Below, in pieces: positions 18,732 to 56,320 of a stretch of DNA of 64,000 bases. The notes beneath the pieces were generated by a model. That model saw only the letters and a program-made list of their open reading frames with translations, did not search any database and was not told the DNA's origin. Source of the DNA: Chloroflexota bacterium (GTDB lineage: Bacteria > Chloroflexota > Dehalococcoidia > UBA2247 > RBG-13-53-26); contig PUNJ01000117.1 in assembly GCA_003551705.1 (NCBI GenBank), positions 8,041-72,040 of the forward strand, written 5' to 3'. The translations under genes and the position numbers were made by a program. Each line of letters begins with the position of its first letter. Positions within the stretch are counted from its first letter, which is position 1.

Positions 18732-18754
18732 CTAAGCACCCTCATCTGGAAAAT

Positions 18755-20416: not shown

Positions 20417-20435
20417 CAGACCTCCAGTCCTGCTG

Positions 20436-21125: not shown

Positions 21126-21162
21126 CGATAAACTTCACCCCGCTTCAGGTTCTAGCCAGAGA

Positions 21163-22362: not shown

Positions 22363-22371
22363 CTGACAACC

Positions 22372-23394
22372 TCACATAGCACCGGCGACGACTTCGGCCA
22401 GGTCTAACACCTCAATCTTTTCCGATCCCAGTTCTTTAAGTCCAGCCTTCAGTTGAAGGATGCAGCCAGGACAGTGGGTGACGATTGTGTCCGCCCCTGT
22501 ATCCAGGAGTTCCTTCGTGCGATTCACGGCAAGAATGTGGCTGAGTTCAGGGAAAACAGCCTCGAACCCTCCACCTCCGCCGCAGCAAGTTGACCATTCC
22601 TTCTCAGTCCCTTCACTACTTACGAGTTCAACACCCTCGATCGCACTCAACACCTGACGAGGCTCTTCTATTACCCCCATAAACCTGGAAAGCTGGCAGG
22701 GGTCATGGTACACAACCTTGACCTGGCGTGAGAACTGGAGCTTTCTCGACCCGAGGTTCTCGGCGACTATTTGAATGAAGTGTTTCACTTCCAGATCGGA
22801 ACCACCGTCCTGCGATGCCACGAAATTGCTGAGAGTGTAGGTACAAGAAGGCACGAGCCCTATTATCCGCTTCACACCTCTGGATTTCAGCACCTTGCGC
22901 ACATCCTCGGTGTTCTTGACAAAGTCTCTTTCCAAACCGATGTAGTGCAGCAACCCACCGCAGCAGGGCTCATCTTCACCCAGATAGCCGAACTCAATGC
23001 CAAGCTTGTTCAACACCGTAACCGCATCCTTCAATGGCTTCGTATCGGCCTCATTCCCCCTCACCGTTACCTTTCGATATACGCCACCAAGGTCGATGCC
23101 AAGTTTCTTCTGTAATCCGGCCATTCCCATGGGTAACTCCGCACCTATTTTGCTCTTGTCCATGCCCCGCATCAGGGACATCAGCGAAACGAGATCGCTG
23201 GAGTACTGGTATCCGCACCCAGCAAAGAAAATGGTATCAGTCTCCTTGGAGAACTTGATATCTTTGGCCCACTTCGAGCGGGATCTCTTTGCATCGCCTA
23301 GAATATTGTGCTTGGAAATTATATTATCAGCCAGGTATGCCAACCCTGGAGGGATCAGGCCCTTCGATTTACTACTCATGTGAATAACCCCCAA
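22372..23394 (-). CDS. CCG-domain Fe-S oxidoreductase (HdrB/HdrD/GlcF/LutA/SdhE-like)
   Basis: 340 aa; two CCG motifs (EDEPCCGGLLHY and WSTCCGGGGGFEAV). Confidence 0.65.
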   Translation of the reverse strand: MGVIHMSSKSKGLIPPGLAYLADNIISKHNILGDAKRSRSKWAKDIKFSKETDTIFFAGCGYQYSSDLVSLMSLMRGMDKSKIGAELPMGMAGLQKKLGIDLGGVYRKVTVRGNEADTKPLKDAVTVLNKLGIEFGYLGEDEPCCGGLLHYIGLERDFVKNTEDVRKVLKSRGVKRIIGLVPSCTYTLSNFVASQDGGSDLEVKHFIQIVAENLGSRKLQFSRQVKVVYHDPCQLSRFMGVIEEPRQVLSAIEGVELVSSEGTEKEWSTCCGGGGGFEAVFPELSHILAVNRTKELLDTGADTIVTHCPGCILQLKAGLKELGSEKIEVLDLAEVVAGAM

Positions 23395-23410
23395 TATGAA
23401 TTCGGTCTAC

Positions 23411-24295
23411 TCAGGCGCGTACCGGTAGACGGTCCTTCAGTAGCTGCGATATCTCGCTGGGCCTCTCAGCCACCGGTACGCCGGCGGCAAGGTAGGCATC
23501 CACCTTTGACCGGGCAGTGCCGACATTGCCCATGACGATGGCGCCCGCATGTCCCATTCGCTTTTCAGGAGGAGCGGCCCTTCCCGCAATGTACGCCACC
23601 ACCGGCTTCGGATACCGCGTGTCAGCGATATACTGGGCAGCCATCTCCTCTGCTTTGCCCCCCACCTCACCAATCAATACAACGCCTTTCGTCTCAGCAT
23701 CATTCCTGAACATCTCAAGCAGCTTTACAAAGTCCAACCAAACTATCGCATCACCCCCGATGCCAACGCAAATACTTTGACCCAGTCCGGAACTCGTTAT
23801 GTGCCAGGCGATCTCGTAGGTCAACGTACCGCTTCTGGAGGCTATGGCTACGTTCCCAGCCTGGAAGATGTGACCGGGCATGATGCCAACCTTGACTCTG
23901 TCTACAGGGTTTATGACTCCAGGACAATTGGGTCCGACTATCACTGCGCCGGTCCTCTCCGCTTTGGCAATGAACTCAATGGAGTCTTTCTGCGGTACCA
24001 TCTCGGTAATAATCACCACCGTCTTGATACCTGCATCCAAAGCTTCATGCACTGCGTCAGGAGCGAAGCGCGCAGGTACAAAGATAATGGATGTGTTGGC
24101 CCCACGTTCCGCTACAGCCTGTGGTACCGTCCCATATACAGGCACGCCCTCGACTTCTTGACCTCCTTTGCCTGGAGTGACCCCGGCCACTACATTGGTC
24201 CCGTATCGCAACATGGACTGAGCGTGAAACCTGCCTTCATTACCAGTTATACCCTGCACTACCACCCGGGAACCAGCATCGATTATGCTATTCAA
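23411..24295 (-). CDS. sucD: succinyl-CoA synthetase alpha subunit
   Basis: 294 aa; CoA-binding and catalytic-His region (GHAGAIV) typical of SucD. Confidence 0.9.
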   Translation of the reverse strand: MNSIIDAGSRVVVQGITGNEGRFHAQSMLRYGTNVVAGVTPGKGGQEVEGVPVYGTVPQAVAERGANTSIIFVPARFAPDAVHEALDAGIKTVVIITEMVPQKDSIEFIAKAERTGAVIVGPNCPGVINPVDRVKVGIMPGHIFQAGNVAIASRSGTLTYEIAWHITSSGLGQSICVGIGGDAIVWLDFVKLLEMFRNDAETKGVVLIGEVGGKAEEMAAQYIADTRYPKPVVAYIAGRAAPPEKRMGHAGAIVMGNVGTARSKVDAYLAAGVPVAERPSEISQLLKDRLPVRA

Positions 24296-25437
24296 GACTT
24301 CACCTCACCACTTATCTTCAGTAACTGCTCTGTAGCCGTCTCCATGTCGGGGTATACCCCAATCCCGGCCTCGCTCAATAACCTGGCACCTTCCTCTTCA
24401 TTCGTACCCATCATTCGCACTGCAACCGGCTTCTTCTCCCATGAGGCTTCCAGACCTTGAATGATTCCGTCCGCAACGATATCACATCGCGTGATCCCGC
24501 CCAGAATATTCACCAGGACTCCCTTCACCTCAGGCTTTGACATGACAAGGAGCAAGCCGTTCTTGATGACGTCCACCTTAGCCCCGCCTCCAATATCCAG
24601 AAAATTCGCAGCCCGCCCCCCATAGAGATTCACAAGGTCCATGGTAGCCATTACCAGTCCAGCGCCGTTGCCTACAATACCGATGTTTCCATCCAGTTCT
24701 ACATAAGCCAGACCCTGCCGCCTCGCCACGGCTTCTCTGGGAGTATCTTCAGTCCGCACCATGTCCCGTTGTTCGAATTCAGGGTGGCGAAAAATCGCGT
24801 TCTCATCAATGATTATCCTGGCATCGGCAGCTACGAATGCACCGGTAGACGTCTTTGCCAGGGGATTGAGCTCGACCAATTCAGCATCAAAGTCCATGGC
24901 CACCGTATACAGAGTGGCGGCAACCTTGGCAAAGCCTTCAGTATCACCCTCCGACAGCCCGAACTCCTTAACCATGTTTCTTGCCGCAGCAACATCAAAG
25001 CCCGTTGTGGGTTCCACCCAGTGGCGCAATATCTTATCCGGTGTGGCGCTGGCCACCTCTTCGATGTCCACACCGCCGCTCGTAGACAGCAAAACGACGA
25101 ACTTTCGCTCTTGCCGGTCGACGGTGACCGACGCATAGAGCTGGTCTACCAGGTCAAGCTTCTCTTCTATGAGTACAATCTCTACGGGGATATCCTTGAT
25201 CCTGCTGCCAACAAGTTTCGCCGCAGCATCTCCAGCAGCCTGTGGACTATCGGCAAAAACTATACCGCCTGCCTTGCCTCTGCCCGAGACTTGCACTTGG
25301 GCTTTTATGACTACAGGCCCACCAAAGCCGGCGGCTATGGTCTCCGCTTCGGCAGGATCCATGGTCACCCGCCCGGCCGGTATACCCAGCCCGTACCTTC
25401 CCAGTATTTCTTTGGCTTCATATTCAAAAAGCTTCAA
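24292..25437 (-). CDS. sucC: succinyl-CoA synthetase beta subunit (ATP-grasp)
   Basis: 381 aa; MKLFEYEAKEIL start, ATP-grasp and ligase-CoA domains; 4-nt overlap with sucD. Confidence 0.9.
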   Translation of the reverse strand: MKLFEYEAKEILGRYGLGIPAGRVTMDPAEAETIAAGFGGPVVIKAQVQVSGRGKAGGIVFADSPQAAGDAAAKLVGSRIKDIPVEIVLIEEKLDLVDQLYASVTVDRQERKFVVLLSTSGGVDIEEVASATPDKILRHWVEPTTGFDVAAARNMVKEFGLSEGDTEGFAKVAATLYTVAMDFDAELVELNPLAKTSTGAFVAADARIIIDENAIFRHPEFEQRDMVRTEDTPREAVARRQGLAYVELDGNIGIVGNGAGLVMATMDLVNLYGGRAANFLDIGGGAKVDVIKNGLLLVMSKPEVKGVLVNILGGITRCDIVADGIIQGLEASWEKKPVAVRMMGTNEEEGARLLSEAGIGVYPDMETATEQLLKISGEVKS

Positions 25438-25455
25438 AAACTTCCTCCCGCGGAG

Positions 25456-25860
25456 CTATTGTGGTTCGGTCAACTCAATGAGCGCTCTCGTTCCCTTGGG
25501 ATGCAGGAAGGCTATCTTGTTGTTCCCCGCACCCATACGCGACTTCTTGTCTATGAGCGGTACTCCTCCCTTGTCCAGGTTTTCCAGCACGCTATCTATA
25601 TTGTCTACCTGTAACGCCAGGTGATGCAGACCCTCGCCTCTGGAAGCTATGAACTTGCCGATGGGTCCATCTGGGTCAGTAGTTTCCAGTAACTCTATTC
25701 TGATATCGCCGACAGGAATGACAGCGACACGGACTTTCTGGTCTGATACTATTTCAATATCCTCCACTTTCAAGCCAAGCCATTCCACGTAGGGTTTCAT
25801 GGCTTCCTCAATGCTGTTTACGGCAATCCCGATATGGTTAACCTTCTTTACCACGGCCAT
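25456..25860 (-). CDS. methylmalonyl-CoA epimerase (VOC/glyoxalase fold)
   Basis: 134 aa; HIGIAV...HHLALQV metal-binding pattern; in the mutase operon. Confidence 0.75.
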
Positions 25861-26251
25861 TCTCCTTCATCTGCTTCTCGATATAGGCTGTAATGTCTGC
25901 CAGGCGTGTGCCCGGTCCAAACACCCTGGATAGGCCGGCCTCTTGGAGGACTGGGATATCCTTCTCGGGGATGATGCCTCCGCCGACTACAAGGATGTGT
26001 CCAGCGCCCTTGCTGCGCAGTAGTTCCACAACCCTGGGGAAAAGGGTCATGTGAGCCCCCGACAGGCAACTGAGCCCGACAACATCGACGTCTTCCTGTA
26101 CCGCTGCATCGCATATCTGTTCGGGAGTCAGCCGAAGGCCAAGATAGACCACTTCCATACCCGCATCGCGTAGGCCCTGCGCAATGACCTTCGCGCCTCT
26201 GTCATGTCCGTCCAAGCCTGGTTTGGCCACTAGTACTCGAATCTTGTCCAT
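25838..26251 (-). CDS. methylmalonyl-CoA mutase, B12-binding small subunit
   Basis: 137 aa; DGHDRGAKV (DxHxxG cobalamin His-ligand motif), Rossmann-like. Confidence 0.85.
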
Positions 26252-26266
26252 GACTTTGATCCCTTC

Positions 26267-27871
26267 CTATAAAATGTTCGGTTCCCGGTATTCTCCGAAT
26301 ACACTCCTGAGTACATCGCTTATTTCGCCCACAGTTGCATACGCCTTCGCTGCCTCAATGAGGGCCGGCATCAGGTTTTGATCACTTTGAGACGTCTCGC
26401 GCACACCTTCCAGTGCTCTGCCGACCTTCTCCTTGTCTCTGCCCTTTCTCAGCTTCTCAAGGCGCTCCGCTTGTTTCTGCTCGATTTCCCGTCCAATCTC
26501 GAGTATCTTGCGTGGTTCAGCCTCAGCTACCTGGTATTTGTTTACTCCAACAATGACCTGATCACCGGAGTCCACCGCTTTCTGAAAACTGTACGAGGAG
26601 CTGGCGATTTCCCTCTGGATATAGCCCTTTTCAATGGCCTTGAGCGCGCCCCCCAGGCGGTCGACCTCCTCAATGTATTCCAGAATCTTCGTTTCCAGAG
26701 CGTTAGTCAGAGACTCAACAAAGAAAGACCCGCCAAGCGGGTCCACCGTATCCGCTACACCACTCTCCTCAGCAATGATCTGTTGTGTCCTCAAGGCCAC
26801 CTGTACCGCTTCCTCGGTGGGCAAAGCCAGTGCTTCGTCATACGAGTTGGTATGTAGTGACTGGCAGCCACCCAGTACTGCTGCGAGCGACTGTATCGTG
26901 ACCCTGACGATGTTGTTCAGCGGCTGCTGTGCAGTGAGTGTGAAGCCATCTGTCTGTACGTGATAACGGAGGGATTGCGACCTGGTATTGGTGCTCCCGA
27001 AACGTTCCTTCATGATCCTGGCCCAGAGACGGCGCAGAGCCCTGTACTTTGCCACCTCTTCCAGCAGATTGGTATAAGCCGCGAAGAAGAATGAGAACCT
27101 CGATGCAAAGGAATCGACTTCCATGCCCTTGGCAATCATGGCCTCTACATAGGCTATGCCATTAGCCAGCGTGAAAGCGGCTTCCTGGGCGGCAGTGGCA
27201 CCGGCCTCCCTCATATGATAACCACTGATACTTATCGAGTTCCACTTGGGCAATTCGTTGGCACAGAAGGAGCATATATCAGTTACAAGCCTCATGGAAG
27301 GTTCCGGGCCAAAGATGTAGGTATTGCGAGCAATATACTCCTTGAGAATGTCATTTTGAACGGTGCCCTCGAGCTTGTTCCGATCAGCCCCCTGCTTCTC
27401 CGCCGCTACAATGTACATGGCGAGAATGATGGGCGCTGTGGCGTTTATGGTCATGGATGTACTGACATCTGCCAGAGGGATGCCCTCCCACAGCCGCTCC
27501 ATATCCTCAAGTGAGTCTACAATTACGCCGCATCTGCCGACCTCGCCTGCCGCCAGCGGATGGTCCGAGTCATACCCCTCCTGGGTAGGTAGCTGGAAGG
27601 CCACGCTGAACCCAGTCTGCCCCTGCTTGTACAGGTACTTGAATCTCTCGTTTGTTTCCTCAACCGTGCCGAAGCCGGCATACTGCCGCATGGTCCAGAG
27701 CCTGCCTCGATAACCAGTGGGCATGATATGCCGGGTGAAGGGGTACTCGCCTGGCAATCCCAGGTCCTCATCCCGAACAGCGGCATCGGCTGCAGTGTAG
27801 ACCCTCTTAACGGGCAAACCATCTACGGTCGTTTTGAATTCGGTCTTTCTTTCGCTGCTCTTATCCGCCAT
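26267..27871 (-). CDS. methylmalonyl-CoA mutase, large catalytic (TIM-barrel) subunit; split archaeal-type
   Basis: 534 aa; [48 protein letters not shown]; start ATG at 27869..27871 with GGAAGAGG SD. Confidence 0.9.
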
Positions 27872-42231: not shown

Positions 42232-44490
42232 TCAGTGGCGCCGGTCCTTATATCGCCTGGCTGCAGCCCTTGTCAGGCCATAGCCGGTACAAATCACGAT
42301 ACCGGTGATGCCCCAGCCAATCATGAGTTCCGTCCCCGATGGAGCCGAGTCAACCGCGGGACAGTCACAGGCTCCACCGGCAGCCGCACCCCTCCCCACT
42401 ACGATATAGTCCTCTTTCACCATGGTATCCGATCCCCCCGGTCCCGTTACGGTCAGGGTCACCGTCCAGGTGCCTTCGGGCAGGTTTGCAGCCGGATTCT
42501 TGTCAGTCGAACTGGCCGATCCACCTTCGGTCTGGAAGACCCACTTCCAACCGGTGATCTCGCCTGTAGATTGACAGGTAAACTGCACCGTTAGAGGTGA
42601 TCCGCCGGTCCTCGGCTCAGCAGAGAAACTCGCCGTCGGTGCCGGAGGCTTCGACTGAGTAGTGAAGGAGGTCTCTAAAGACCAATCGGACCAGAGGCCG
42701 TGACTGTCCTGGTATCGTACACGCCAGTAATACTCATCCTCATAGTCAAGATTGCCGCGGGGGACGGCGATACTCGTCAACGACCTGTCGCCCTGGTTAT
42801 CGAACACGTTACCGTGATCCCCGTCTACCTCCCTTATCTGCCAGTGAGATGCGGCATGGCTGTTGTCAGGCTCTGCATGCACGAAGGCGGAACCCCGGAG
42901 CGTGGGAGTAGCACTTACGTTAGTGGCCCCGTGTACCGGAGAGACATTGGCAGGCTGGTCCGGTGCTACCTGCTTGGTGGTGAAACTCGTCTGCGTGGAA
43001 TAGGAGGACCAAGACCCGTGATTATCCTGATGGCGGACCCTCCAGTAGTATGTTTGGTTGTAACCAAGCAAGCCTGACGGAACCTCTATACTGGTCAAAG
43101 CGGAAGCATCTGCACCGCTATCGAACACCGGAGCACTGAAGTCGCCCGAAATGGCACTGATCTGCCACTGGGACGCCGCATGTGTGTCCCCCTCATCAGG
43201 GTCGAAGAAGTCCGCCGATTCCAGCGTAGGCTCGGCTTCTTGCCCGCTTGCCCCGGCAACGGGTTTGAGATTGGCCGGCTGGTCAGGAGGATTGCTTAGC
43301 TTTATGAGCCACACATCTCGGTCGCCGGCACCAAAGGACGAGGTTTCACCAACGACGACATACCCTCTGTCGAGGGACTGCCAAATACCCCACGCCCTAT
43401 CAGCTCCTACGCCACCCAGGACCTGTGACCACGTCACATTCCCGGAGGAATCGGTCTTGACCACCCATACATTAGGTCCGCCTGTCTTAAAGGATGATGT
43501 TTCCCCGACAAAGATATAGCCCCCGTCTGCAGTATGGCGGAGTGCGCGGCAGAAATCGTCCTCGGCACCACCATAGGTACGCTCCCATTGCCTGTTTCCT
43601 GCCGAGTCCGTCTTGATCAACCAGGCATCATACAGGCCTGCGCCCTTGGAGTATGTGCTTCCACCTATAATGAACCCTCCATCTGTGGTTGGCTGAATGG
43701 AGGAACCAATATCAACCTGATCGCCCCCGAAAGTCCTTTCCCAAAGCAGCTTGCCGTCTCTGTCCACCTTGATCAGGTATATATCCGAACTCGCTTCGGC
43801 CTTCGAGTAGGTCTGTCCAATGACCACGTGACCGCCACCAATCTCAATAATGTCATAACCTCTGTCGGCCTTGCTGCCCCCGTAGTTCATCTCCCAAACC
43901 AGATTTCCATTTTCATCAGTCTTGATCAGATAGACATCCTCTTCCCCTACCCCATGAGATGTCGTCCAGCCGGCGATAATATACCCACGGTCCGTCGTTT
44001 GTCGCACAGCACGGCCGACGTCCCACCCATCGCCGCCAAACGTCGCTTCCCATTCCAGTTCACCGGCACTATCTGTCTTGACTAACCATACCTTCTCCAA
44101 CCCGTCTCTGGCCGTGGTTCCGCACAATATGTAGCCATCGTCGTGTGTTTGCTGAACTGACCACACTTCTTCACGAAACGAGCTACCGAAGGTCTTCAAC
44201 CAGGTCTCGGTTCCATCAGCTGCAGTCTTGATCAAGAGTGCCTGAGACGTGCCTCCAAAAGAGGCTGTTGTACCTGCAATGATCAACCCGCCATCCCTGG
44301 TCTGCTGAACTGCATTGCCAACATCTGCCTGAGTCCCTCCATAGGTCCTGCCCCACACCATGCCGGCCGTCGCACCCGTACCAGCATGAGCATCGTCGGC
44401 AGGTAGTATAACGGCAGGCATCGCAACGCAGACAGCCATCAAAAAACTGACTATGACCAGAACTGCCCTTGACGCTCCACGTCGTCTCAT
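42232..44490 (-). CDS. secreted/surface-anchored multidomain protein: eight ~48-aa beta-propeller-like repeats, two FN3-like modules, PKD domain, C-terminal TM anchor with basic tail
   Basis: 752 aa; signal peptide. Repeat unit of the form YGG...D.G...QT.DGGYII.G.T.S.G....D.WLIKTD..GN..WE.T repeated 8 times. Two ~100-aa modules ending ...SFTT. PKD-like PLTVQFTCQSTGEITGWKWVF...GTWTVTLTVTGPGGSD. C-terminus LMIGWGITGIVICTGYGLTRAAARRYKDRRH. Confidence 0.7.
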   Translation of the reverse strand: MRRRGASRAVLVIVSFLMAVCVAMPAVILPADDAHAGTGATAGMVWGRTYGGTQADVGNAVQQTRDGGLIIAGTTASFGGTSQALLIKTAADGTETWLKTFGSSFREEVWSVQQTHDDGYILCGTTARDGLEKVWLVKTDSAGELEWEATFGGDGWDVGRAVRQTTDRGYIIAGWTTSHGVGEEDVYLIKTDENGNLVWEMNYGGSKADRGYDIIEIGGGHVVIGQTYSKAEASSDIYLIKVDRDGKLLWERTFGGDQVDIGSSIQPTTDGGFIIGGSTYSKGAGLYDAWLIKTDSAGNRQWERTYGGAEDDFCRALRHTADGGYIFVGETSSFKTGGPNVWVVKTDSSGNVTWSQVLGGVGADRAWGIWQSLDRGYVVVGETSSFGAGDRDVWLIKLSNPPDQPANLKPVAGASGQEAEPTLESADFFDPDEGDTHAASQWQISAISGDFSAPVFDSGADASALTSIEVPSGLLGYNQTYYWRVRHQDNHGSWSSYSTQTSFTTKQVAPDQPANVSPVHGATNVSATPTLRGSAFVHAEPDNSHAASHWQIREVDGDHGNVFDNQGDRSLTSIAVPRGNLDYEDEYYWRVRYQDSHGLWSDWSLETSFTTQSKPPAPTASFSAEPRTGGSPLTVQFTCQSTGEITGWKWVFQTEGGSASSTDKNPAANLPEGTWTVTLTVTGPGGSDTMVKEDYIVVGRGAAAGGACDCPAVDSAPSGTELMIGWGITGIVICTGYGLTRAAARRYKDRRH

Positions 44491-46018: not shown

Positions 46019-46705
46019 CTATTGATGTACCGCTTCTATTTCGCCCTTCAGGTAAGCCTCGTTCACCTGCTTTGCCGGGTGTAACTGTACGCTATAGTCC
46101 TTCAGCGGGGCCAGTTCTTCCATCTTGTCCAAACGTCCCTGCTTGGACAACCGCTCGTATATCAGTGCCCACGCACAATCCCTCTCCGTGCTGGTCTCAC
46201 ACTTGCCCTCTTTCTGACCGCCGCACTGGCCGTTGACCAGACCCTTTGGACACCTGGCAATAGGACAGATGCCGCCATAATCGGCAAGCAGGCAATTACC
46301 GCAGGCACGGCACCGCTCCGACCAGACACCCTCCGCCTCCGCAACCCCTATGAAACGCGTATTCAGTCCGGGGACCACCGGCTGCGTCTCCAGCATATCA
46401 GCCACCAGTTGCACGCCCGCGCCACAGGCCAGAGAGAGGACCGCCTCGACACCCCTGGCCTTCTCCAGAATAGGCTCGATATACTCTCTGTCGCACTGCC
46501 GCTGTATGGTGGCTTCTTCAATCTTCACATTGCCATTCTTCAACTGCGCGGCCATCCTTAGCTGCGAGGCCAGCAGTTCCACTTCCTTCTCGCCGCCAGC
46601 CATGCATACGCTGACACACGTCCCGCATCCAAGGACCAGCAGACTCTTGTAGTCCTTGACCCGCTCCTGGATTTCTTCGAAAGGTTTTCTCTCACCAACA
46701 ATCAT
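46019..46705 (-). CDS. MetV-like Cys-rich protein (MTHFR C-terminal zinc-ribbon domain family) with extra N-terminal CGTC module
   Basis: 228 aa; CRACGNCLLADYGGICPIARCPKGLVNGQCGG...GKCE matches the MetV / PF12225 pattern; 4-nt overlap with the mvhD stop. Confidence 0.55.
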   Translation of the reverse strand: MIVGERKPFEEIQERVKDYKSLLVLGCGTCVSVCMAGGEKEVELLASQLRMAAQLKNGNVKIEEATIQRQCDREYIEPILEKARGVEAVLSLACGAGVQLVADMLETQPVVPGLNTRFIGVAEAEGVWSERCRACGNCLLADYGGICPIARCPKGLVNGQCGGQKEGKCETSTERDCAWALIYERLSKQGRLDKMEELAPLKDYSVQLHPAKQVNEAYLKGEIEAVHQ

Positions 46706-47127
46706 CCTGCTTTTTCCTTTCTCAAGGGATTAGGCCCCAGATCGCGGGCCCTCTGGGTCATCTCGTTGCAGGCGGACGCAAACATCGGCGCATCAGACGC
46801 CCCCAGGTTATACATCTCTACTCTGTCAGGTTCCAGGCCGATCTCCTCGAGGAGTTTCTTGGCTTGCTTGACTCTTTTCTTGGCTCTCAAATTTCCTTCC
46901 AGGAAATGACAATCACCTTCCTCTCAGCCGGCGACGAAGGCGGCATCCGCCCCTTCGGCCAGAGCCTGAAGGAGGTGTATGGTATCAACTTTGCCCGTAC
47001 ACTCGAGCTTCACAATCCGCACATTCGGCGAATACTCCATGCGCATGGAGCCTGCCAGGTCGGCTGCCGAATAGGCACAATAGTGACAGCAGAAAGCCAC
47101 CACCTTTGGTTCGAAAGGCTCACCCAC
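46702..47127 (-). CDS. mvhD: MvhD (methyl-viologen-reducing hydrogenase delta subunit family) with in-frame TGA at 46924..46926: predicted selenoprotein
   Basis: ORFs 46924..47127 (MGEPFEPKVVAFCCHYCAYSAADLAG...EGADAAFVAG) and 46702..46890 are contiguous in one frame through a single TGA. Read-through gives ...AAFVAG-U-EEGDCHFLEGNLRAKKRVKQAKKLLEEIGLEPDRVEMYNLGASDAPMF..., i.e. the MvhD VAGC-x-GDCHY motif with Sec at the first Cys. Confidence 0.75.
46891..46907 (-). promoter_or_regulatory. candidate bacterial SECIS hairpin 16 nt downstream of the mvhD UGA
   Basis: RNA: AUUUCC-UGGAA-GGAAAU, a perfect 6-bp stem with 5-nt loop carrying GG; position fits bacterial SECIS spacing. Confidence 0.4.
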
Positions 47128-47147
47128 GGTACTCTCCTTTCTCTTCG

Positions 47148-50100
47148 CTAGACATACAAAACACAGGTCTTGGCCAGTATCTGTTCATCGTCGTAGTGCT
47201 GCAGGCGTATAGCCTTGCGCGGGCAGGCGCTGGTACAGATGCCACACCCACGACATGCCGCCTGTTCGATATCCGCAAACCCGTCAGCGTTAATGGTCGG
47301 GACATTGAAGGGGCAGGAGCGAACACAGGTCAGACAGGCTACGCATCTATCCTGGTCCACCACCGAGACAATCCCCCCTACCATCAGATACGGTTGCGCC
47401 AGTATCGTCGCCGCCCTGGATACCGCACCCTTGGCCTGTGCAATGGACTCAGCTATGGTCTTCGGAGCGTGTGCCATGCCGCATAGATACATGCCTTCAT
47501 TAATGAAGTCCAGGGGCCTGAGTTTCATATGTGCTTCCATGTAGAAGCCGTCCTGCGTCAAGGGCAGTTTCAATTTGCTGGCAAAGACGTGAGCATCCGG
47601 TTGAGGCCGGACCGCCGCACTCAGGACCACCAGGTCCGAAGGCAAAGAGATGCTCCTGCCCAGGACCGAATCATAAACACTTACCATCACCCGGTCACCC
47701 GATGCATCCACCTCCGGCTTCATGTCGTCTTCGAAGCGTATGAAAGTAACACCCTTATCCCTGGCCTCACGATACTTCAGTTCTTTCATACCATACGTGC
47801 GAATGTCACGGTACAGGATGTACACTTCGGCCTTCGCGTTGTCTTCTTTTATCTTGAGTGCATTGCCGATCGCCTGGCCGCAACAAACGCGGCTGCAATA
47901 CATGTTGTCCTTTTCACGTGAGCCTACACACTGGATCATCACCACCGAATTGAGGTCCTTCAGGTCGATGGCCTTCCTTACCAGCTTGTCTTCCAGGTCC
48001 AGTTGGGTTATGACCTTGTCCGATCGGTCAGCCGAATACTCGGACGGTCTGAATTCCACGCCGCCCGTAGCCAGTATCACAACACCGTGTTCAATATCGT
48101 GCAGTTCGCCTCCGGCAGTGGCGATGCGGGACACGTAGTTGCCCACATACCCGGAGAAGTCCTGTACTGTCGATTCCTTATACACCTGTATGCGGGGTTC
48201 CCGCTCTACCTCTGCAACCAGCGATTTGAGCAACTCATGCGGATCAGAACCATCAAGCGTGTAATGCAGGTTCTTCAAATTGCCGCCCAGCTCTTTCTCC
48301 CTTTCCACCAGAACGGCATCGAAACCCTGCGCCGCCAGCCCGAGGGCAGCCGTCATCCCAGCCGCCCCGCCACCTATCACCAGACCAGAGCGATGAATGC
48401 TTGCCCGAGACTGGTGCAGAGGTTTTAACGTAGCCGCACGCGCCACCGCCATTCGCACCAGGTCCTTTGATTTCTCCGTAGCCCGGTCAGGGAAGTGCGA
48501 ATGGACCCAGGAACACTGGTCCCTGATGTTTGCCATCTCAAAGAGGAACTTGTTGAGACCCGCCTCCTGTATCGTGTCCTGGAAAAGAGGTTCATGGGTA
48601 CGGGGACTGCAAGAAGCCACCACCACCCGGTTAAGGTTCTTCTCCTTGATTGCCTCAACGATCTTGATCTGGGTATCCGTCGAACATGTATAGAGATTCT
48701 CGTCTGCATGTACTACGTAGGGGAGGGTTTTCGCATACTCAGCCACGCCCGGTACATCCACAACCCTGGCGATATTAGAGCCGCAACGACAAACAAAAAC
48801 GCCTATTCGCGGTTCCTGCCCGTCGATACTGAGCTCCGGCGGGTACGCCTTCTCTGTAACCATGCTACCCCGGACCTGGGCAATGCCCTGAGATGCCAGG
48901 TGCGCAGCACCGCTGGCATTCATAACCGATTCCGGAATGTCCATTGGAGCATTGAAGGCGCCGGCCACGTACACTCCGGGGCGTGAAGTCACGTTGGGTT
49001 CAAACTCCTCAGTCCTGCAGAACCCGAACTGGTCCACATCCACAGCCAGCCGCTCCGCCAGTTTCTTGGTGCTGGCTGAAGGGACCAGCCCGATGGAAAG
49101 GACCACCATGTCGAATTCTTCAGAGCGGCGCCCTTCGTCAGTATCATATTCCATAACCAGATTATGGCTCTGCTGCAACTCCTTGACTCCGGAAACCAGG
49201 CCCCTCACATAGCGTATGCCGAACTTGTCCTTGGCCGACTCGAAGTATCGCTCGAAGCCCTTACCATAGGCCCGCATGTCGTTATAGAAGATGGTGGGCT
49301 CTATATCGGCGGCATGTTCCCTGGCGATGATGGCTTCTTTCGTGGCGTACATGCAGCAGACCGAGGAGCAATAGTCGCGGTCGCAGGTCTCATCCCTGGA
49401 ACCGACGCACTGTATCCAGGCTATCTTCACGGCATGCTTTCCGTCCGACGGCCTCAGTACCTGGCCCTGGTAGGGGCCTGAAGCGGACAGAATTCGCTCG
49501 AACTGCATACTGTTAATGACATTGGGCATGCGTCCGTAGCCGTATTCGTCCTTCAAAGCAGCATCGAATTCTTCAAAGCCGGGGGCCAGAATAACCGAGC
49601 CGACGTTCAGGTCGACCGTCTGTTCCAGCATGGTATGGTCTATGGCGTTGGCCTGGCAGGCTGCCACGCACTGGTAGCATTCGCTGCAGAGTCCACAGGC
49701 CAGACAACGTTCCGCCTCAGCCTTGGCCGCCTCATGGCTTAGCTCAAGCTCTACCTCCCGGAAGTCCCGCCTCCTTTCGGCAACCGGCAGGTGAGGAGCA
49801 TTGTGACGAGGCATCTTTTTCACGCCTTCCAGCGGCACCTCGACCGGCGTGAAGGTGCGCTCTCTGTCCAAAGCGATGTCCTCGCCCTTGAGATATCTGT
49901 CTATCGAAATGGCCGCCTCTTTGCCGGCCGCTATTGCCTGGATAACTGACGCCGGGCCGGATACACAGTCACCTCCAGCGAATATACCAGGCTTGTTTGT
50001 GGCCACGGTGACTGGATCGACGTTTACCGTCCCTTGCGGAGTGGTGGTAATACCCGCCTCTCTCCAGGGTGTCAGATCGCTCTGCTGTCCTATGGCAATA

Positions 50101-51581
50101 ATGACCACATCCGCATCCAGCGAACTCGTTATATCCGATGCAAACTCGGGATTGAAACGCCCATCAGCGTCAAACACACGTGTACAGGCTACGCACTCCA
50201 GGCCCGTAACGTTTCCCTTGCCACCCAGAACGCGCTTGGGCCCCAGAGAGCAATGCAGCTCGACGCCTTCCTCAATAGCAGCCTCTATCTCCCACTCGTG
50301 AGAAGGCATCTCCTGCCTCGACTCCAGACATACCACGTGTACTTCTGAGGCACCCAATCTGAGAGATGATCTGGCAACGTCTATGGCGACGTTTCCGCCA
50401 CCAACCACAACCACCTTCTTCCGGCTGAATGAATCGGCCGCCATCTTACCGGAGGCCGCGTCCCTCAAGAAGTCCACTCCAAACAGGACTCCGTCCAGGT
50501 CGATCCCCTCCAGTCCTAGTCGTCGGGACTGGGGAGCTCCAACACCAACAAAGACTGCTTCGTATTGTTCAGACAACTGGTCGACGGTCACATCGGAACC
50601 AACGCGTGTATTGAGTTTTACCTCAACACCCATCTGCAGGATACGGTCAATCTCGTATTTCACAACATCCCGGGGCAGGCGGTACTCAGGAATGCCTACG
50701 GACATCATACCGCCAAGCACTGGATTTGCCTCAAAAATGGTGGGTTCATAGCCGGACAGTGCCAGGAAGTAAGCTGCGCTGAGACCGGCAGGGCCGGACC
50801 CGACGATGGCGACCTTCCTTCCGTTCTTGGGCAATCCGGCTGGCAGGGTATCCTCGCCTCCTGCCTTGACCTCGTCCGCAACGTATCTCTTCAACTGGCA
50901 TATGGAGACCGCCTCGTCCACCTTGGTCCTTGAGCAGTCCGTCTCACAGGGATGCACGCATACCCTGCCGCATATGCCCGGCAGCGGGTTCTGCTCTCTA
51001 ATGAGGTCCAATGCTTCCTTGAACTTGCCTTGATATATCAGCGCCACATATCCCTGCACGCTTATGTGGGCCGGACAGGCTATCTTACAGGGAGATGTCC
51101 CCCGCTTGTCGATGGACATGGCGCTGGGTATGGCCTGCGGATAACGTTTAAAGATGGCCTTCCGAGTGGCCAACTCTTCCTCGAACTCGCTTGAAATGAT
51201 GACCGGACACACCTCAACGCAGTCACCACACGAACTGCACTTGGTCAGGTCAATGAAACGCGGCCTCTTACGGACCTGCGCCATGAAATTGCCTTCCTCA
51301 CCATCGAGCGACAGCACCTCGGCATTAGTGACTATCTCGATATTGGGATGCCTGCCAACCTCGATCAGTTTCGGAGAGATCATGCACATGGAGCAGTCGT
51401 TGGTGGGGAAGGTCTTGTCTAGCTGTGCCATCCTGCCGCCGATGGAGGTTGTCTCCTCGACAAGGTAGACCTTGAAACCGGAGCTGGCCAGGTCCAGGGC
51501 GGACTGCATGCCGCATATTCCGCCGCCCACAACCATGACAGCGCCCACTTTGTTGGAGTTCGGACTCTTTTCTATCTTCAT
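47148..51581 (-). CDS. HdrL-type giant heterodisulfide reductase A-like flavoprotein: HdrA module interrupted by a GltD/NfnB-like NAD(P)H:FAD oxidoreductase module, followed by a second HdrA module and ferredoxin domains (1477 aa)
   Basis: N-terminus VMVVGGGICGMQSALDLASSGFKVYLVEE (HdrA FAD fold). Residues ~170-560: CKIACPAHISVQGY...GICGRVCVHPCETDC then KVAIVGSGPAGLSAAYFLALSGYEPTIFE...VVVVGGGNVAIDVARS (GltD/NfnB-like). Thioredoxin-like CRCGSNIARVVD. Second FAD fold LVIGGGAAGMTAALGLAAQGFDAVLVERE. Terminal CVACLTCVRSCP / CRGCGICTSACP. No in-frame stop. Confidence 0.8.
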   Translation of the reverse strand: MKIEKSPNSNKVGAVMVVGGGICGMQSALDLASSGFKVYLVEETTSIGGRMAQLDKTFPTNDCSMCMISPKLIEVGRHPNIEIVTNAEVLSLDGEEGNFMAQVRKRPRFIDLTKCSSCGDCVEVCPVIISSEFEEELATRKAIFKRYPQAIPSAMSIDKRGTSPCKIACPAHISVQGYVALIYQGKFKEALDLIREQNPLPGICGRVCVHPCETDCSRTKVDEAVSICQLKRYVADEVKAGGEDTLPAGLPKNGRKVAIVGSGPAGLSAAYFLALSGYEPTIFEANPVLGGMMSVGIPEYRLPRDVVKYEIDRILQMGVEVKLNTRVGSDVTVDQLSEQYEAVFVGVGAPQSRRLGLEGIDLDGVLFGVDFLRDAASGKMAADSFSRKKVVVVGGGNVAIDVARSSLRLGASEVHVVCLESRQEMPSHEWEIEAAIEEGVELHCSLGPKRVLGGKGNVTGLECVACTRVFDADGRFNPEFASDITSSLDADVVIIAIGQQSDLTPWREAGITTTPQGTVNVDPVTVATNKPGIFAGGDCVSGPASVIQAIAAGKEAAISIDRYLKGEDIALDRERTFTPVEVPLEGVKKMPRHNAPHLPVAERRRDFREVELELSHEAAKAEAERCLACGLCSECYQCVAACQANAIDHTMLEQTVDLNVGSVILAPGFEEFDAALKDEYGYGRMPNVINSMQFERILSASGPYQGQVLRPSDGKHAVKIAWIQCVGSRDETCDRDYCSSVCCMYATKEAIIAREHAADIEPTIFYNDMRAYGKGFERYFESAKDKFGIRYVRGLVSGVKELQQSHNLVMEYDTDEGRRSEEFDMVVLSIGLVPSASTKKLAERLAVDVDQFGFCRTEEFEPNVTSRPGVYVAGAFNAPMDIPESVMNASGAAHLASQGIAQVRGSMVTEKAYPPELSIDGQEPRIGVFVCRCGSNIARVVDVPGVAEYAKTLPYVVHADENLYTCSTDTQIKIVEAIKEKNLNRVVVASCSPRTHEPLFQDTIQEAGLNKFLFEMANIRDQCSWVHSHFPDRATEKSKDLVRMAVARAATLKPLHQSRASIHRSGLVIGGGAAGMTAALGLAAQGFDAVLVEREKELGGNLKNLHYTLDGSDPHELLKSLVAEVEREPRIQVYKESTVQDFSGYVGNYVSRIATAGGELHDIEHGVVILATGGVEFRPSEYSADRSDKVITQLDLEDKLVRKAIDLKDLNSVVMIQCVGSREKDNMYCSRVCCGQAIGNALKIKEDNAKAEVYILYRDIRTYGMKELKYREARDKGVTFIRFEDDMKPEVDASGDRVMVSVYDSVLGRSISLPSDLVVLSAAVRPQPDAHVFASKLKLPLTQDGFYMEAHMKLRPLDFINEGMYLCGMAHAPKTIAESIAQAKGAVSRAATILAQPYLMVGGIVSVVDQDRCVACLTCVRSCPFNVPTINADGFADIEQAACRGCGICTSACPRKAIRLQHYDDEQILAKTCVLYV

Positions 51582-51596: not shown

Positions 51597-52448
51597 TTAA
51601 ATCAGTCCTTTTTGGCTCAACAGCGGCCTCGGGTCCACAATATGGCGGCGAAGCCATTTCTTGGCGGACGGGTGCTTGTAGGCTATTCCCATCAATTCGG
51701 TGAAGTAGAAGATCGGTATCCGGTATTCTTTTCCTGTCGCCTTTGAGATCTCTCCCTGCCTGCCATCCAGATTGGAAAGACACATGGGGCAGCCGGCAAC
51801 GATGCATTCCGCGCCTGCTTCCACAGCCGCATCCAGCAGCTTCACCATCAAGTCCCTGGCTATGTCGGGACGAGTCAATATCAGGCTGCCACCGCAACAA
51901 TCAGCCTTGTAAGACCATGGTCGTACATCGACTCCGAGGCAGGTCAGAAGGCTGTCCATGGACATGGGGTTCTCCGCGCTGGCGGCATCTGTGACCTTGG
52001 GCGGACGGGTAGTCAAACAGCCGTAATAGCATACCGCCTGCAGGTTTTCGAGAGGGACCTTGACCTTCGCCGATAACCGGTCCTCACCCAGGTCTTCCCA
52101 GAAGAAGTTGGCGACATGCTTGACCTTGAACTTTCCACCATAGCCATTGACACCATCAATCTTCTCCCCGGCAACCAGCTTCTTTTCGGCGACCTTAAGC
52201 CTCTGGAAGCACGCCGCACAGGGCACCACCAGGTCCAAGCCGGACTTGTCGGCAACAGCCAGGTTCCTGGCAGCAAGTGACAAGGCCAGTCTGTGATTCA
52301 ATGCATGTGCAGAAGACGCCCCGCAGCAATTCCAGTCCTTGAGCTCGCGCAGGTTGATATCCATAAGATGAGCAACACCTTCCAAGGACTCACTGTACTC
52401 CTTGGCCGTCCCTTCCAGTGAACATCCAGGATAATACGAAACTTCCAT
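51597..52448 (-). CDS. hdrB: heterodisulfide reductase subunit B (two CCG domains)
   Basis: 283 aa; MEVSYYPGCSLEG, NCCGASS and DCCGGSL. Confidence 0.85.
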   Translation of the reverse strand: MEVSYYPGCSLEGTAKEYSESLEGVAHLMDINLRELKDWNCCGASSAHALNHRLALSLAARNLAVADKSGLDLVVPCAACFQRLKVAEKKLVAGEKIDGVNGYGGKFKVKHVANFFWEDLGEDRLSAKVKVPLENLQAVCYYGCLTTRPPKVTDAASAENPMSMDSLLTCLGVDVRPWSYKADCCGGSLILTRPDIARDLMVKLLDAAVEAGAECIVAGCPMCLSNLDGRQGEISKATGKEYRIPIFYFTELMGIAYKHPSAKKWLRRHIVDPRPLLSQKGLI

Positions 52449-52450: not shown

Positions 52451-53023
52451 CTATCCTTTCAACTCGCTTGCTTTATAGAGTTGTTTGATATCGCTCTTAG
52501 CTTTCACACCGCTCGGTATGATCTTCACCTTCCCCTTTTTAAACATCGTAAGGCCAAAGTTGACCAGCTTGAACAAGCCGGCCCAGGACTCATTCTTGAA
52601 AGTGTAGGCCAAGATCATTTCACCCTCGTATACCCTGCCACGTTTCTTGATGGAGCCCAGAAAGGCTTTATGAAGGAGGGGGACACTCCGCTGGGCAGCC
52701 TCAATGTTCTCCTCGTACCCGATCTGCCTCAGGGTATCCATGACATGGGCGATCTGAATACCGTTGGGACATCTGGTACTGCAGGTCTCACAGGATGCAC
52801 ATATCCATATCGTACGACTCTTGAGCACTTCATCCTTAAGGCCGAACTGGATTTCGCGCATTAGCTTGTGAGGCGTGATATCCATGTAGGAAGCCAGCGG
52901 GCAACCGTTGGTGCATTTCATGCATTGGAAACACGCAGAGATGCTTTCACCGCTGAGGCTTTCCACTTTCTGGCGAAATGAGGATTGAGGCTCGAGGTTT
53001 GGCAATACTTCAACAGCAGTCAT
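52451..53023 (-). CDS. hdrC: heterodisulfide reductase subunit C (4Fe-4S dicluster)
   Basis: ORF 52451..53068; preferred start ATG 53021..53023 (MTAVEVL) with GAAGGTGGGAG SD; CFQCMKCTNGCP and CASCETCSTRCP. Confidence 0.8.
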   Translation of the reverse strand: MTAVEVLPNLEPQSSFRQKVESLSGESISACFQCMKCTNGCPLASYMDITPHKLMREIQFGLKDEVLKSRTIWICASCETCSTRCPNGIQIAHVMDTLRQIGYEENIEAAQRSVPLLHKAFLGSIKKRGRVYEGEMILAYTFKNESWAGLFKLVNFGLTMFKKGKVKIIPSGVKAKSDIKQLYKASELKG

Positions 53024-53279
53024 ACTCCCACCTTCGCAGATTATTGGGATGAAAAAGTAAAAAAGCAACGCCTTCGATTACATGATTACGAAATGCGATT
53101 GCTTTGGTATGAACGTTCTATCCATTCTGGCCAATCTGACGATTCTTCGTATTACCCCCGATTACCAGCTTGTAAACACAATGCAACTTGGGAAATTTTA
53201 CCATGTTGGCCCTCTGTTTGTCCAAGCAGCGCCTTGTATACCAATATCGGGTATGTTATGATTTTGCCGAGGTTGAACA

Positions 53280-54326
53280 ATGGTTGAAAAGGAAAAAGCG
53301 CTCGATCTGGCGATTCAACAGATAGAGAAACAGTTCGGCAAGGGCTCGGTGATGAAGCTTGGGGAACAGGCTGGCAGCGTGGCCGCGGAAGCCATCCCGA
53401 CTGGATCTCTGGCACTCGATCTGGCCTTGGGGATCGGCGGTATACCCAGAGGCAGAATTATCGAAATCTTCGGCCCCGAATCAGCAGGGAAATCAACTCT
53501 CGCCCTGCACATCATGGCCCAGGCCCAGGCAATGGGGGGCAACGCCATCTACATCGACGTCGAGCACACCTTCGATCCCATGTATGCAGAGCGTTGTGGT
53601 GTACGCCTCATGGGCATGCCGGTTTCGCAACCTGATACAGCCGAGCAAGCCCTGGAAATCATGGAGACCTTCGTCCGCAGCGGAGGAGCGGATGTTATCA
53701 TCCTCGACACTGTAGCGGCCCTGGTACCTCGCGCCGAGATCGAGGGGGACATGGGCGATCCGCAAATGGGATTGCAAGCCAGGCTCATGTCTCAGGCCCT
53801 GCGCAAACTGACGCATGCCATAAGCAGGTCCAATGCCGCCGCAATATTCATCAACCAGCTGCGTGAAAAGGTAGGTGTTTTCTTTGGTAATCCCGAGGTG
53901 ACCCCGGGAGGCAGAGCACTGAAATTCTATAGTTCTGTTAGAATAGATTTGAGGCGGGTCGATTCCATCAAATCAGGCAGCGAGATAATCGGTAACAGAG
54001 TCCGAGCAAAAATCGTCAAGAACAAGGTTGCGCCCCCATTCCGGCTGGCGGAATTCGATATCACCTTTGATCATGGCATAAGCAAGGAAGGCGACCTTCT
54101 TGATCTGGGAGTGACGGCGGGGTTGGTCAAAAAGAACGGTGCTTTCTTCTCATACGGAGAGGAACGGCTGGGACAGGGCCGAGAGAATGCCAAAGCTTTC
54201 CTGCGGGACAACAATGCCATAGCCGCCGAACTCGAGCAGCAGATCAGGAACAAGATGTCGACCAGGGTCGCATACAACAATACGGATGTGGAACCAGATG
54301 ACAAGGCTGCTGCCCCTGCAGAATGA
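53280..54326 (+). CDS. recA: recombinase RecA
   Basis: 348 aa; [12 protein letters not shown] Walker A, bacterial RecA throughout; SD GAGGT. Confidence 0.95.
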
Positions 54327-54807
54327 GAGTGCCCTACCCGATCATGGGCGTTGTCTAGACAGTGCTTTCAGGTTCCTGTCATTTCGTCCCCGCAGCGAGT
54401 CTGAAATAAAGTCTTTCTTGGCTAAGAAGGGATACGAAACCAATACCATAGAGAAGGTCCTGATTAGGCTGAGGGCCGACAATTTGGTTGATGACGAGGC
54501 CTTTGCCCAGTTCTGGAAGTCCAATCGCCAAACTTTCAGCCCGCGGGGCCATTCATCGCTAAGAAGAGAACTCCGTAATAAGGGAATTGAGCCTGACATG
54601 ATAGATAGAATACTTGAAGACCTGGACGAGCATGCAGCAGCATGCAAAGCTGCCGAGAAGAAAGCTAAGCACCTTGCCGGACATGATTACCAGACCTTCC
54701 GTCGCAAGCTGGCAGGGTTCCTCGGCCGGCGAGGCTTTGCTTACGACATATGCAATTCGGTGGTAAATAGCTTCTGGGAGAAGAGAGGTAAGGATGACGA
54801 AGAGTGA
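54286..54807 (+). CDS. recX: RecA regulator RecX
   Basis: 173 aa three-helix-repeat protein directly after recA (start could be 54298). Confidence 0.75.
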
Positions 54808-55453: not shown

Positions 55454-56320
55454 ATGAGCCTCAAGGAGAAGCTTTCTACAGGCAAGTTCATAATCACCAC
55501 CGAGGTCGGTCCACCCAAAGGCATGGATATCCACGAAATGAAGGAGAATATCGAACTGCTAAAGGACCGCGTTGATGCTCTCAACTGCACGGACCAGCAG
55601 GCATCGGTCATGCGTTTGGGTTCTCTGGCCAGTTGCTATCTGGCCAAGCAATGGGGTATTGAACCGGTCTTTCAAGTGACTTGCCGGGATCGAAACCGCA
55701 TCGCCCTGCAGTCCGATTTGCTCAATGCAGCGGCTTTCGGCATTGAGAACGTATTGGCACTAACAGGCGATCACGTTTCCCTTGGCGATCATCCTGGAGC
55801 CAAGCCTGTCTTCGACCTCGACTCCGTGTCGCTCTTGCAAGCTATGAAGAGCCTTGAGGAAGGCCATGACCTGGCCGGTAAAGAGATTAAGGGTACTCCC
55901 AAGTTCTTCAAGGGAGCCGTCGTCACGCCCGGTGCGGAACCAGTGGAACCCCAAATCATGAAGATGCACAAGAAGATCAAAGCCGGGGCGCAGTTCTTCC
56001 AGACTCAGGCTATGTACGATTCACGCAAATTTGAAGAGTTCATGAAGATCGTCAAACCCACGGGGATGCCCGTATTGGTGGGTATCGTGGTACTCCGTTC
56101 CGCCGCCATGGCCCGCTTCATGAACAAGAACGTAGCGGGAATTCACGTGCCGGACAACCTTATTGAAGAAATGGACAAGGCAGAAAAGAAGGCCGCCAAG
56201 GGCATTGAAATTGCAGCTCGCCTGATCACGGAGATGAAGGATTCGTGCCAAGGCGTACATATCATGGCCATAGGAATGGAGGACAGGGTTCCGGCAATAC
56301 TTGATGCCGCCAAACTCTAG
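55454..56320 (+). CDS. metF: methylenetetrahydrofolate reductase, short acetogen/archaeal type
   Basis: 288 aa; FIITTEVGPPKG, TIM-barrel MTHFR pattern; strong SD GAGGAGGG; promoter TTGTCT-N18-TAAAAT about 105 nt upstream. Confidence 0.75.
   Translation: MSLKEKLSTGKFIITTEVGPPKGMDIHEMKENIELLKDRVDALNCTDQQASVMRLGSLASCYLAKQWGIEPVFQVTCRDRNRIALQSDLLNAAAFGIENVLALTGDHVSLGDHPGAKPVFDLDSVSLLQAMKSLEEGHDLAGKEIKGTPKFFKGAVVTPGAEPVEPQIMKMHKKIKAGAQFFQTQAMYDSRKFEEFMKIVKPTGMPVLVGIVVLRSAAMARFMNKNVAGIHVPDNLIEEMDKAEKKAAKGIEIAARLITEMKDSCQGVHIMAIGMEDRVPAILDAAKL

Follow-up and report, generated by a model that had tools for sequence, protein, structure and literature searches.

The gene mvhD lies on the minus strand of a 64,000-nucleotide (nt) stretch of contig PUNJ01000117.1 from a Chloroflexota bacterium of the class Dehalococcoidia, hereafter referred to as the window. 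Its reading frame contains a TGA at codon 68, which we predict to encode selenocysteine (Sec) with the help of a hairpin of the selenocysteine insertion sequence (SECIS) type located within the coding sequence (CDS). The gene belongs to the operon hdrC-hdrB-hdrL-mvhD-metV (Table 1), which the initial annotation of this locus had described as intact. The gene order was confirmed and is syntenic in relatives. The GTG start codon of mvhD (47127-47125) follows the TAG of hdrL after 20 nt, and its own stop codon is the TGA at 46704-46702, which overlaps the metV start codon in the tetranucleotide ATGA; both spacings agree with the initial annotation.

The two open reading frames (ORFs) into which mvhD is divided, 46924..47127 (67 residues, GTG start) and 46702..46890 (62 residues, TTG start), had been proposed to be parts of a single gene. 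Their coordinates proved correct, and they are in one frame with a single TGA between them. When read through, the product contains EGADAAFVAG, the residue encoded by the TGA, and then EEGDCHFLEGNLRAKKR, and the domain search identified it as a complete MvhD. With Cys put at the stop, it matches the Pfam family FlpD (PF02662) over positions 1-123 of 123 (E 3.9e-47). The best NCBIfam match is the VhuD model, covered from position 1 to 131 of 132 (E 1.9e-48), with a score of 163.9 bits, which is under the curated cut-off of 215 bits for this model. As judged from the sequence, mvhD is very probably one intact gene that encodes a selenoprotein of ca. 15 kDa.

Table 1. Coordinates of mvhD, its internal elements and the associated genes in the window.
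Feature	Position	Strand	Basis
mvhD, whole gene through the internal UGA; 141 sense codons, predicted Sec at codon 68	46702..47127	-	Sequence, Pfam, NCBIfam
In-frame UGA, predicted Sec codon, residue 68	46924..46926	-	Cys/TGA column among relatives, VhuD alignment
SECIS-type hairpin within the CDS, codons His74-Asn79 (His-Phe-Leu-Glu-Gly-Asn)	46891..46907	-	Comparative conservation
Shine-Dalgarno sequence AGGAG, 6 nt 5' of the mvhD GTG	47134..47138	-	Direct sequence reading
hdrL, 1477-residue fusion of HdrA-type and GltD/NfnB-type flavoprotein modules, uninterrupted	47148..51581	-	Pfam, NCBIfam
hdrB, two CCG domains	51597..52448	-	Pfam, NCBIfam
hdrC, 4Fe-4S dicluster	52451..53068	-	Pfam, NCBIfam
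metV, PF12225, methylene-tetrahydrofolate (THF) reductase C-terminal-like	46019..46705	-	Pfam, ATGA overlap with the mvhD stop
metF, methylene-THF reductase (MTHFR), likely catalytic partner	55454..56320	+	Pfam PF02219, E 2.5e-39

The TGA column in relatives of mvhD

The initial annotation had suggested that the TGA column be compared with that of MvhD relatives. Across 80 related genome loci, this column reads TGA in 22 and the Cys codons TGC or TGT in 58. The closest loci in the genome collection come from metagenome-assembled Dehalococcoidia and other Chloroflexota, and 17 of the 21 closest have TGA. The 22 genomes with TGA at codon 68 comprise Dehalococcoidia, Chloroflexia, Anaerolineae, and others. 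Cys occupies this position in all 11 database homologues of full length that were read. On a rough neighbour-joining tree, at least five switches between Sec and Cys occurred at codon 68, and a Cys subclade formed by L012, L015, and L019 sits within the Dehalococcoidia Sec clade.

Synonymous and non-synonymous differences were counted between the window and 17 Dehalococcoidia Sec loci (L001-L021) over 60 codons upstream and 51 codons downstream of the TGA. The upstream part has 23-30 synonymous versus 7-16 non-synonymous differences, and the downstream part has 17-27 versus 10-20. In every one of these comparisons except one, synonymous differences outnumber the non-synonymous ones. As the excess extends to the region 3' of the TGA, we conclude that this half of mvhD is translated in the same frame as the upstream half. 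The five most distant Sec loci (L053, L055, L065, L073, and L077) exhibit more non-synonymous change, as their divergence predicts. The TGA is also present in a second assembly, the Logan assembly of run SRR490150 (L081), whose 5,053 bases are identical to the window aside from one distant base. The recurrence of the TGA in relatives, the selection acting on the downstream half, and the agreement of the second assembly favor Sec over a pseudogene or a frameshift, as the initial annotation had argued.

TGA is the stop codon of 22 of the 58 ORFs in the window, mvhD included. Being a common ordinary stop, it indicates that the genetic code is standard and not reassigned, and hence the decoding of the UGA at codon 68 must depend on its context. 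Other candidate Sec codons were inspected and rejected. Same-frame ORF pairs around one TGA were listed for the whole window, and those located in genes turned out to be adjacent separate genes, namely the genes of the CCG and LUD proteins, speE and rrf2, and nadA and uvrD. In relatives, the in-frame stops found in tblastn alignments of HdrL, HdrC, MetV, or MetF are not aligned with Cys.

The hairpin in Sec and Cys forms

The perfect 6-bp hairpin that the initial annotation had placed 16 nt past the UGA was confirmed in its coordinates. It is composed of a 5' arm AUUUCC (46907-46902), an apical loop UGGAA (46901-46897), and a 3' arm GGAAAU (46896-46891), and its sequence occurs once in the window. 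The loop begins 22 nt after the UGA, and the stem has 6 bp, or 7 bp with a U-A closing pair. A published model of bacterial SECIS elements has a loop of 3-9 nt with the pattern N1-G-[G/U]-N-N2, a stem of 4-16 bp, a UGA-to-loop distance of 16-37 nt, and a minimum free energy of -7.5 kcal/mol or lower (PMC13188914). The hairpin satisfies the position, the loop pattern, and the stem length of this model. The earlier statement that it has the right place and shape for a SECIS hence holds for its geometry and for its conservation in Sec forms, but draws no support from its stability or from Rfam. As the folding energy is unremarkable, the support for a SECIS rests on comparison. Of the 2102 TGA trinucleotides in the window, 1.9% are followed by a perfect hairpin of 6 bp or more that has bacterial SECIS geometry. 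By itself, the hairpin is only mildly unusual; the TGA/Cys column together with the conservation of the hairpin is far beyond chance.

The hairpin is encoded by codons +6 to +11 counted from the UGA. In 23 Sec forms, these six codons are CAT (23/23), TTC or TAC (19 and 4), CTG (23/23), GAA (22/23), GGA or GGT (19 and 4), and AAT (23/23), respectively. In 58 Cys forms, by contrast, the same codons are free: CAT and CAC occur in 41 and 17, TTC and TTT in 29 and 27, AAT and AAC in 33 and 25, and all four Gly codons are used. Invariant residues that flank the hairpin in the Sec forms are written with three or four synonymous codons. The initial annotation had named a hairpin not conserved in close relatives, together with separate expression of the two halves, as an argument against Sec; all six stem pairs are intact in each of the 22 Sec loci, compared with 4 of the 58 Cys loci.

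A metagenome scan yielded at least 120 Sec-type contigs with a search pattern that fixed only the protein-constrained letters and left the complementarity of the stem free. The window, the 22 genome Sec loci, and the metagenome matches listed were combined in an alignment (A2) with 135 distinct Sec-form sequences. Across these sequences, 99.8% of the stem cells are paired, and all but one or two sequences retain the stem. When the partner was slid by 1-3 columns as a control, just 21-71% of the cells paired. At one of the stem pairs, 76 sequences have U-A and 58 have A-U. Mixtures, in which TTC is combined with GGT or TAC with GGA, do not occur in A2, and the sole departure is L135, which has TAC with GGC and a broken stem. 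For the swap between TTC+GGA and TAC+GGT, a rough tree built by neighbour joining from 131 Sec-form proteins gives ca. four origins, a count that is approximate because ca. 107 residues underlie the tree. The median difference among these proteins is 44% of residues and the maximum 59%, yet the hairpin is almost invariant. Every one of the 136 sequences has G at loop position 2; at position 3, at least 90% have G, and the variants read there are U or A. Loop changes that alter the protein are tolerated, including Glu to Val, Asp, or Tyr and Leu to Gln. At the level of sequence comparison, a fixed stem and loop G amid tolerated loop changes are characteristic of an RNA element that overlaps a coding sequence.

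Aside from the hairpin, the surroundings of the UGA display further regularities. The base following the UGA among the 136 sequences is mostly C; it is G in the Dehalococcoidia type, A in three sequences, and never U. The codons GAG GAA GGC directly after the UGA (window 46914-46923; A2 columns 10-18) are nearly frozen in Dehalococcoidia Sec forms. Three alternative pairings were rejected. The 3-bp lower helix enclosing the UGA that RNAalifold proposed (GGC with G-Y-C) has no compensatory change and four mismatches. In the GGU/GCC helix of the single-sequence fold, one partner is the third position of an Ala codon, which varies freely. For the alternative hairpin of GAGGAAGG (codons +1 to +3) with UUUCCU, codon +2 varies between GAA and GAG in Sec forms. 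Nine Cys forms (L047, L052, L054, L058, L062, L069, and L074-L076) retain the peptide H(F/Y)LEGN despite drift at their synonymous sites. Such forms resemble relics of a SECIS that was lost, and this may mean that Sec was replaced by Cys.

Decoding of the UGA and rival explanations

In the proposed mechanism, the UGA at codon 68 of mvhD would be read as Sec during translation. The 17-nt hairpin, as part of the CDS, would act as a bacterial SECIS, and its apical loop, with the invariant G followed by G or U, would recruit SelB with GTP and Sec-tRNA(Sec) as the UGA enters the A site. Translation would end at the second UGA, which comes after a further 74 codons and lacks such a hairpin. This scheme is drawn from the knowledge of bacterial Sec decoding summarized in PMC13188914. 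The resulting Sec68 would lie in the Cys-rich cluster pocket and most likely provide one of the four ligands, at the side from which electrons pass towards the Cys pair of the HdrA type and flavin adenine dinucleotide (FAD). We estimate the probability that the in-frame TGA is a Sec codon with a functional SECIS at roughly 0.93.

Several results weigh against this assignment. The hairpin alone is weak, with -4.3 to -4.9 kcal/mol, which falls short of the -7.5 cut-off of the SECIS model; the 48 nt from the UGA onward reach -9.9 kcal/mol, but only via flanking 3-bp helices that lack covariation. With z = 0.72, the folding of a 76-nt region is no better than that of shuffled sequence. No Rfam match was obtained at the gathering score in the window, nor at E <= 10 in 46700..47130. 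The Sec-form sequences are related to each other, and the cell counts given above therefore overstate the number of independent events. As to the decoding machinery, the 64-kb window has no tRNA gene and no selA, selB, or selD, and no sel genes are present in ca. 4 kb past its right end. No tRNA-Sec was found in 26 related loci, nor in a wider search over 1.6 Mb of such loci. With no Sec machinery in the window, SelB-dependent decoding is presumed, and the Sec trait of the host rests on the literature. In BSepDB, which covers only species with the Sec pathway, two metagenome-assembled Dehalococcoidia genomes rank among the top ten bacteria by number of selenoprotein genes, with 49 and 46, respectively (PMC13326102).

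Should the TGA result from faulty sequencing or assembly, or from a recent nonsense mutation, mvhD would be a pseudogene. This explanation accords with the gene callers, which split mvhD into pieces of 67 and 62 residues, and with the lack of Sec machinery in the window. However, this TGA recurs in 22 independent genomes and on at least 120 contigs from metagenomes, the second assembly is identical at this codon, the region 3' of it is under purifying selection, and both the hairpin and the flanking operon are intact. The error or pseudogene explanation is effectively refuted. Alternatively, mvhD could be naturally split, with translation stopping at the TGA and restarting at the TTG at 46890 to give two polypeptides that assemble. 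Such a TTG is indeed found 12 codons past the TGA in the window, but of the 22 Sec-form relatives, 18 have CTG, CTC, or CTA as codon +12, and hence there is no conserved restart; nor does a Shine-Dalgarno sequence precede the TTG. Moreover, the 11 codons for EEGDCHFLEGN, which include the invariant Cys73, are conserved at the protein level yet would stay untranslated. Considering these codons and the relatives without TTG, a separately started second polypeptide is not supported, and we regard a natural split as extremely improbable.

The UGA might also be read by a standard amino acid, either by a near-cognate Cys or Trp tRNA or in a reassigned code. Read-through of UGA with Cys occurs in some selenoprotein genes under selenium shortage, and the Sec machinery not seen in the window would be consistent with such decoding. 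It is difficult to reconcile with the frequent use of TGA as an ordinary stop, by mvhD itself among others, with the Sec at the same column of a solved VhuD, and with a hairpin that has the loop motif of SelB-dependent SECIS elements and is itself retained together with the TGA codon; we consider it very improbable. A mainly regulatory UGA, in contrast, is compatible with Sec insertion. When selenium is scarce, a stop at codon 68 would uncouple the translation of metV: the two UGAs are 74 codons apart and the second overlaps the metV ATG, so a failed decoding of the first could lower coupled metV translation. Aside from this overlap in the window, most Sec-form relatives have TGA as the mvhD stop and a metV start ca. 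10-30 nt from the end of the mvhD match, as expected for coupling. Because the Cys forms share this gene order, the coupling is not peculiar to Sec forms, and a mainly regulatory role is unlikely. Insertion of Sec at codon 68, directed by the hairpin, is the explanation we prefer.

Role of residue 68 and the operon context

MvhD/VhuD (PF02662) counts among the catalogued selenoprotein families, with CxxU as the listed site and two Sec in its archaeal members (PMC13188914). The chain 9sfi_K is the VhuD of the Methanococcus maripaludis Hdr-Vhu-Fwd assembly and has X, a non-standard residue, at two columns (PMC13518236). The TGA of the window aligns with the second X (Sec) in AG-X, whereas the first X, in CxxX, aligns with Cys17. 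Hence, the window would use the second known Sec position and retains Cys at the first. The family had been called documented selenoproteins in the initial annotation, and both the catalogue and the Sec at column 68 of the solved VhuD bear this out.

The Cys/Sec columns conserved among solved homologues are 14, 17, 43, 68, and 73 in the window numbering, while Cys13 is not conserved. In Methanothermobacter MvhD, the additional Cys that does not serve as a ligand is Cys16 (PMC13580544), and its equivalent in Geobacter BamF is Sec19 (bioRxiv 10.64898/2026.04.10.717634). With column 17, the Cys16-type column, named a non-ligand, columns 14, 43, 68, and 73 remain as the four ligands. By elimination from the literature and the conserved columns, Sec68 is probably a ligand of the [2Fe-2S] cluster. 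The initial annotation had the stop replace the first Cys of the cluster-binding motif; the conserved Cys/Sec column agrees with this, and the ligand role is likely, although it is reached by inference. Residues near Sec68 are equivalent to His68 and Asp71 in the methanogen protein, where they face the Cys pair of HdrA (PMC13580544), and HdrL of the window carries a matching Cys pair in DCSMC (residues 63 and 66). Alternatively, Sec68 may form a redox pair with Cys17. HdrL begins with an N-terminal HdrA-type piece (residues 1-130) that contains DCSMC, followed by a GltD/NfnB-like insert (ca. 155-660) and the remainder of that HdrA module. Its second HdrA-like module (ca. 1060-1477) is without the Cys pair.

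The six genes of the Moorella-type set (hdrC, hdrB, an hdrA-type gene, mvhD, metV, and metF) are all present in the window, with metF displaced. It is located 2.4 kb from the operon on the other strand, and recA (53280-54326) and recX (54286-54807) lie between metF and hdrC. Unlike in the window, metF directly follows metV in most relatives. The order hdrC-hdrB-hdrL-mvhD-metV(-metF) is retained in most Sec and Cys genome loci, with metV after mvhD in nearly all. At least one homologue of HdrL, MetV, or another operon product is encoded on 113 of the 120 listed metagenome Sec-type contigs, and among these contigs the identity of MetV and HdrL to those of the window goes down to 38-43%. Judging from this gene content, MvhD is probably the [2Fe-2S] adaptor of an electron-bifurcating methylene-THF reductase of the Moorella type, HdrCB-HdrL-MvhD-MetV(+MetF). 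Two Chloroflexia loci (L053:5827-6420 and L055:2535-3000) have a Sec-type mvhD alone, with the same hairpin (TAC/GGT) and no hdr or metV gene nearby. In both, mvhD is directly followed by a class-V aminotransferase gene of the cysteine desulfurase/selenocysteine lyase type (L053:6433-7563 and L055:3046-4167, respectively).

MvhD/VhuD with Sec is well established in Methanococcales and Asgard archaea, and a review limits such hydrogenase-type Sec subunits to sulfate reducers and methanogens (PMC13188914). The archaeal VhuD 9sfi_K resembles MvhD of the window in its family (PF02662; phmmer E 1.9e-37), in the Sec at the same AG-U column, and in being a [2Fe-2S] adaptor on an HdrA-type flavoprotein. 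It differs in that it is the delta subunit of F420-non-reducing hydrogenase, has a second Sec at CxxU where the window has Cys17, and is partnered with hydrogenase or formate dehydrogenase instead of MetFV; its SECIS is archaeal and lies in the 3' untranslated region (PMC13188914), whereas the hairpin of the window lies within the CDS. In Desulfobacterium autotrophicum HRM2, Sec-containing mvhD paralogues neighbour hdrA or hdrL, and, as in the window, a Sec-mvhD is directly 3' of a gene of the HdrL type, an HdrA-GltD fusion (PMC2702500). The likeness is one of gene context in a different phylum, and HdrL1 and HdrL3 of that species are themselves selenoproteins, unlike HdrL of the window. BamF of the Geobacter metallireducens class II benzoyl-CoA reductase is likewise a Sec-bearing [2Fe-2S] adaptor, homologous to MvhD, that feeds an HdrA-type bifurcating flavin (bioRxiv 10.64898/2026.04.10.717634). 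Its Sec19 is at the N-terminal CxxU, adjacent to the cluster but not a ligand, and not at the column of residue 68, and BamF is more than 100 residues longer. Gene set and order agree with those of MetFV-HdrABC-MvhD of Moorella thermoacetica and hdrABC-mvhD-metVF of marine Chloroflexi (PMC5736913). In comparison with them, the window has its HdrA-type protein fused to a GltD/NfnB-like NAD(P)H module, a displaced metF, and an MvhD with predicted Sec; PMC5736913 does not describe the Moorella and marine Chloroflexi MvhDs as selenoproteins. With respect to RNA, the hairpin resembles the bSECISearch-type consensus in its location in the CDS after the UGA, its 6-bp upper stem, its loop UGGAA, and the distance of 22 nt, but it is very short and weak and has no supported lower helix.

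Three other regions of the window were noted. The region 16543-27871 on the minus strand has genes that suggest a methylmalonyl-CoA/succinate (propionate) pathway with Hdr-like redox partners. They encode methylmalonyl-CoA mutase, a B12-binding subunit, a glyoxalase-fold (epimerase-like) protein, and two succinyl-CoA ligase subunits, as well as CCG-domain and LUD-domain proteins, an FAD_binding_2 flavoprotein with ferredoxin-like partners, an acyl-CoA dehydrogenase, and the C-terminal subunit of fumarase. Positions 1-10934 contain an alpha-glucan cluster of the GlgE-pathway type with MalQ, a TreS-maltokinase fusion of 1121 residues, GlgE, and a glucan phosphorylase; the first gene of this cluster, GlgB-like by eye, runs off the left end of the window. 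Between uvrD and the nadE/metV region, 42232-44490 encodes a protein of 752 residues. Its N terminus is signal-like, its C terminus carries a hydrophobic anchor, and it contains SBBP/beta-propeller-like repeats as well as two Ig/PKD domains.

The predicted Sec has consequences for gene annotation. Public gene calls split mvhD of the window into FlpD fragments of 67 and 62 residues (L081; protein clusters P0121-P0123). The cluster of the 67-residue N-terminal fragment also holds 67-residue members from JGI and ENA data, so the mis-annotation of mvhD is recurrent. Reconstructions of the Wood-Ljungdahl pathway or methylene-THF reductase in Dehalococcoidia can thus wrongly score a split MvhD as broken. 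The compact SECIS with its 135 natural variants could serve as a search model.

The mvhD locus is a further Chloroflexota member of a known selenoprotein family and leaves the principle of Sec decoding unchanged; it extends Sec-MvhD to Chloroflexota and to the MetFV-Hdr context. We tentatively suggest, at odds somewhat short of even, that the [2Fe-2S] cluster of MvhD is directly ligated by the selenolate of Sec68 on the side of the HdrA-type Cys pair and FAD, that the Sec and Cys versions tune the input cluster of the bifurcating enzyme, and that an old Sec state was repeatedly lost. If this is true, the paired Sec and Cys versions of syntenic Hdr-MetFV operons would reflect the tuning of the input cluster, and the nearly invariant 17-nt SECIS in CH(F/Y)LEGN, together with the LEGN fossils in many Cys forms, would point to an ancient Sec that has been lost again and again.

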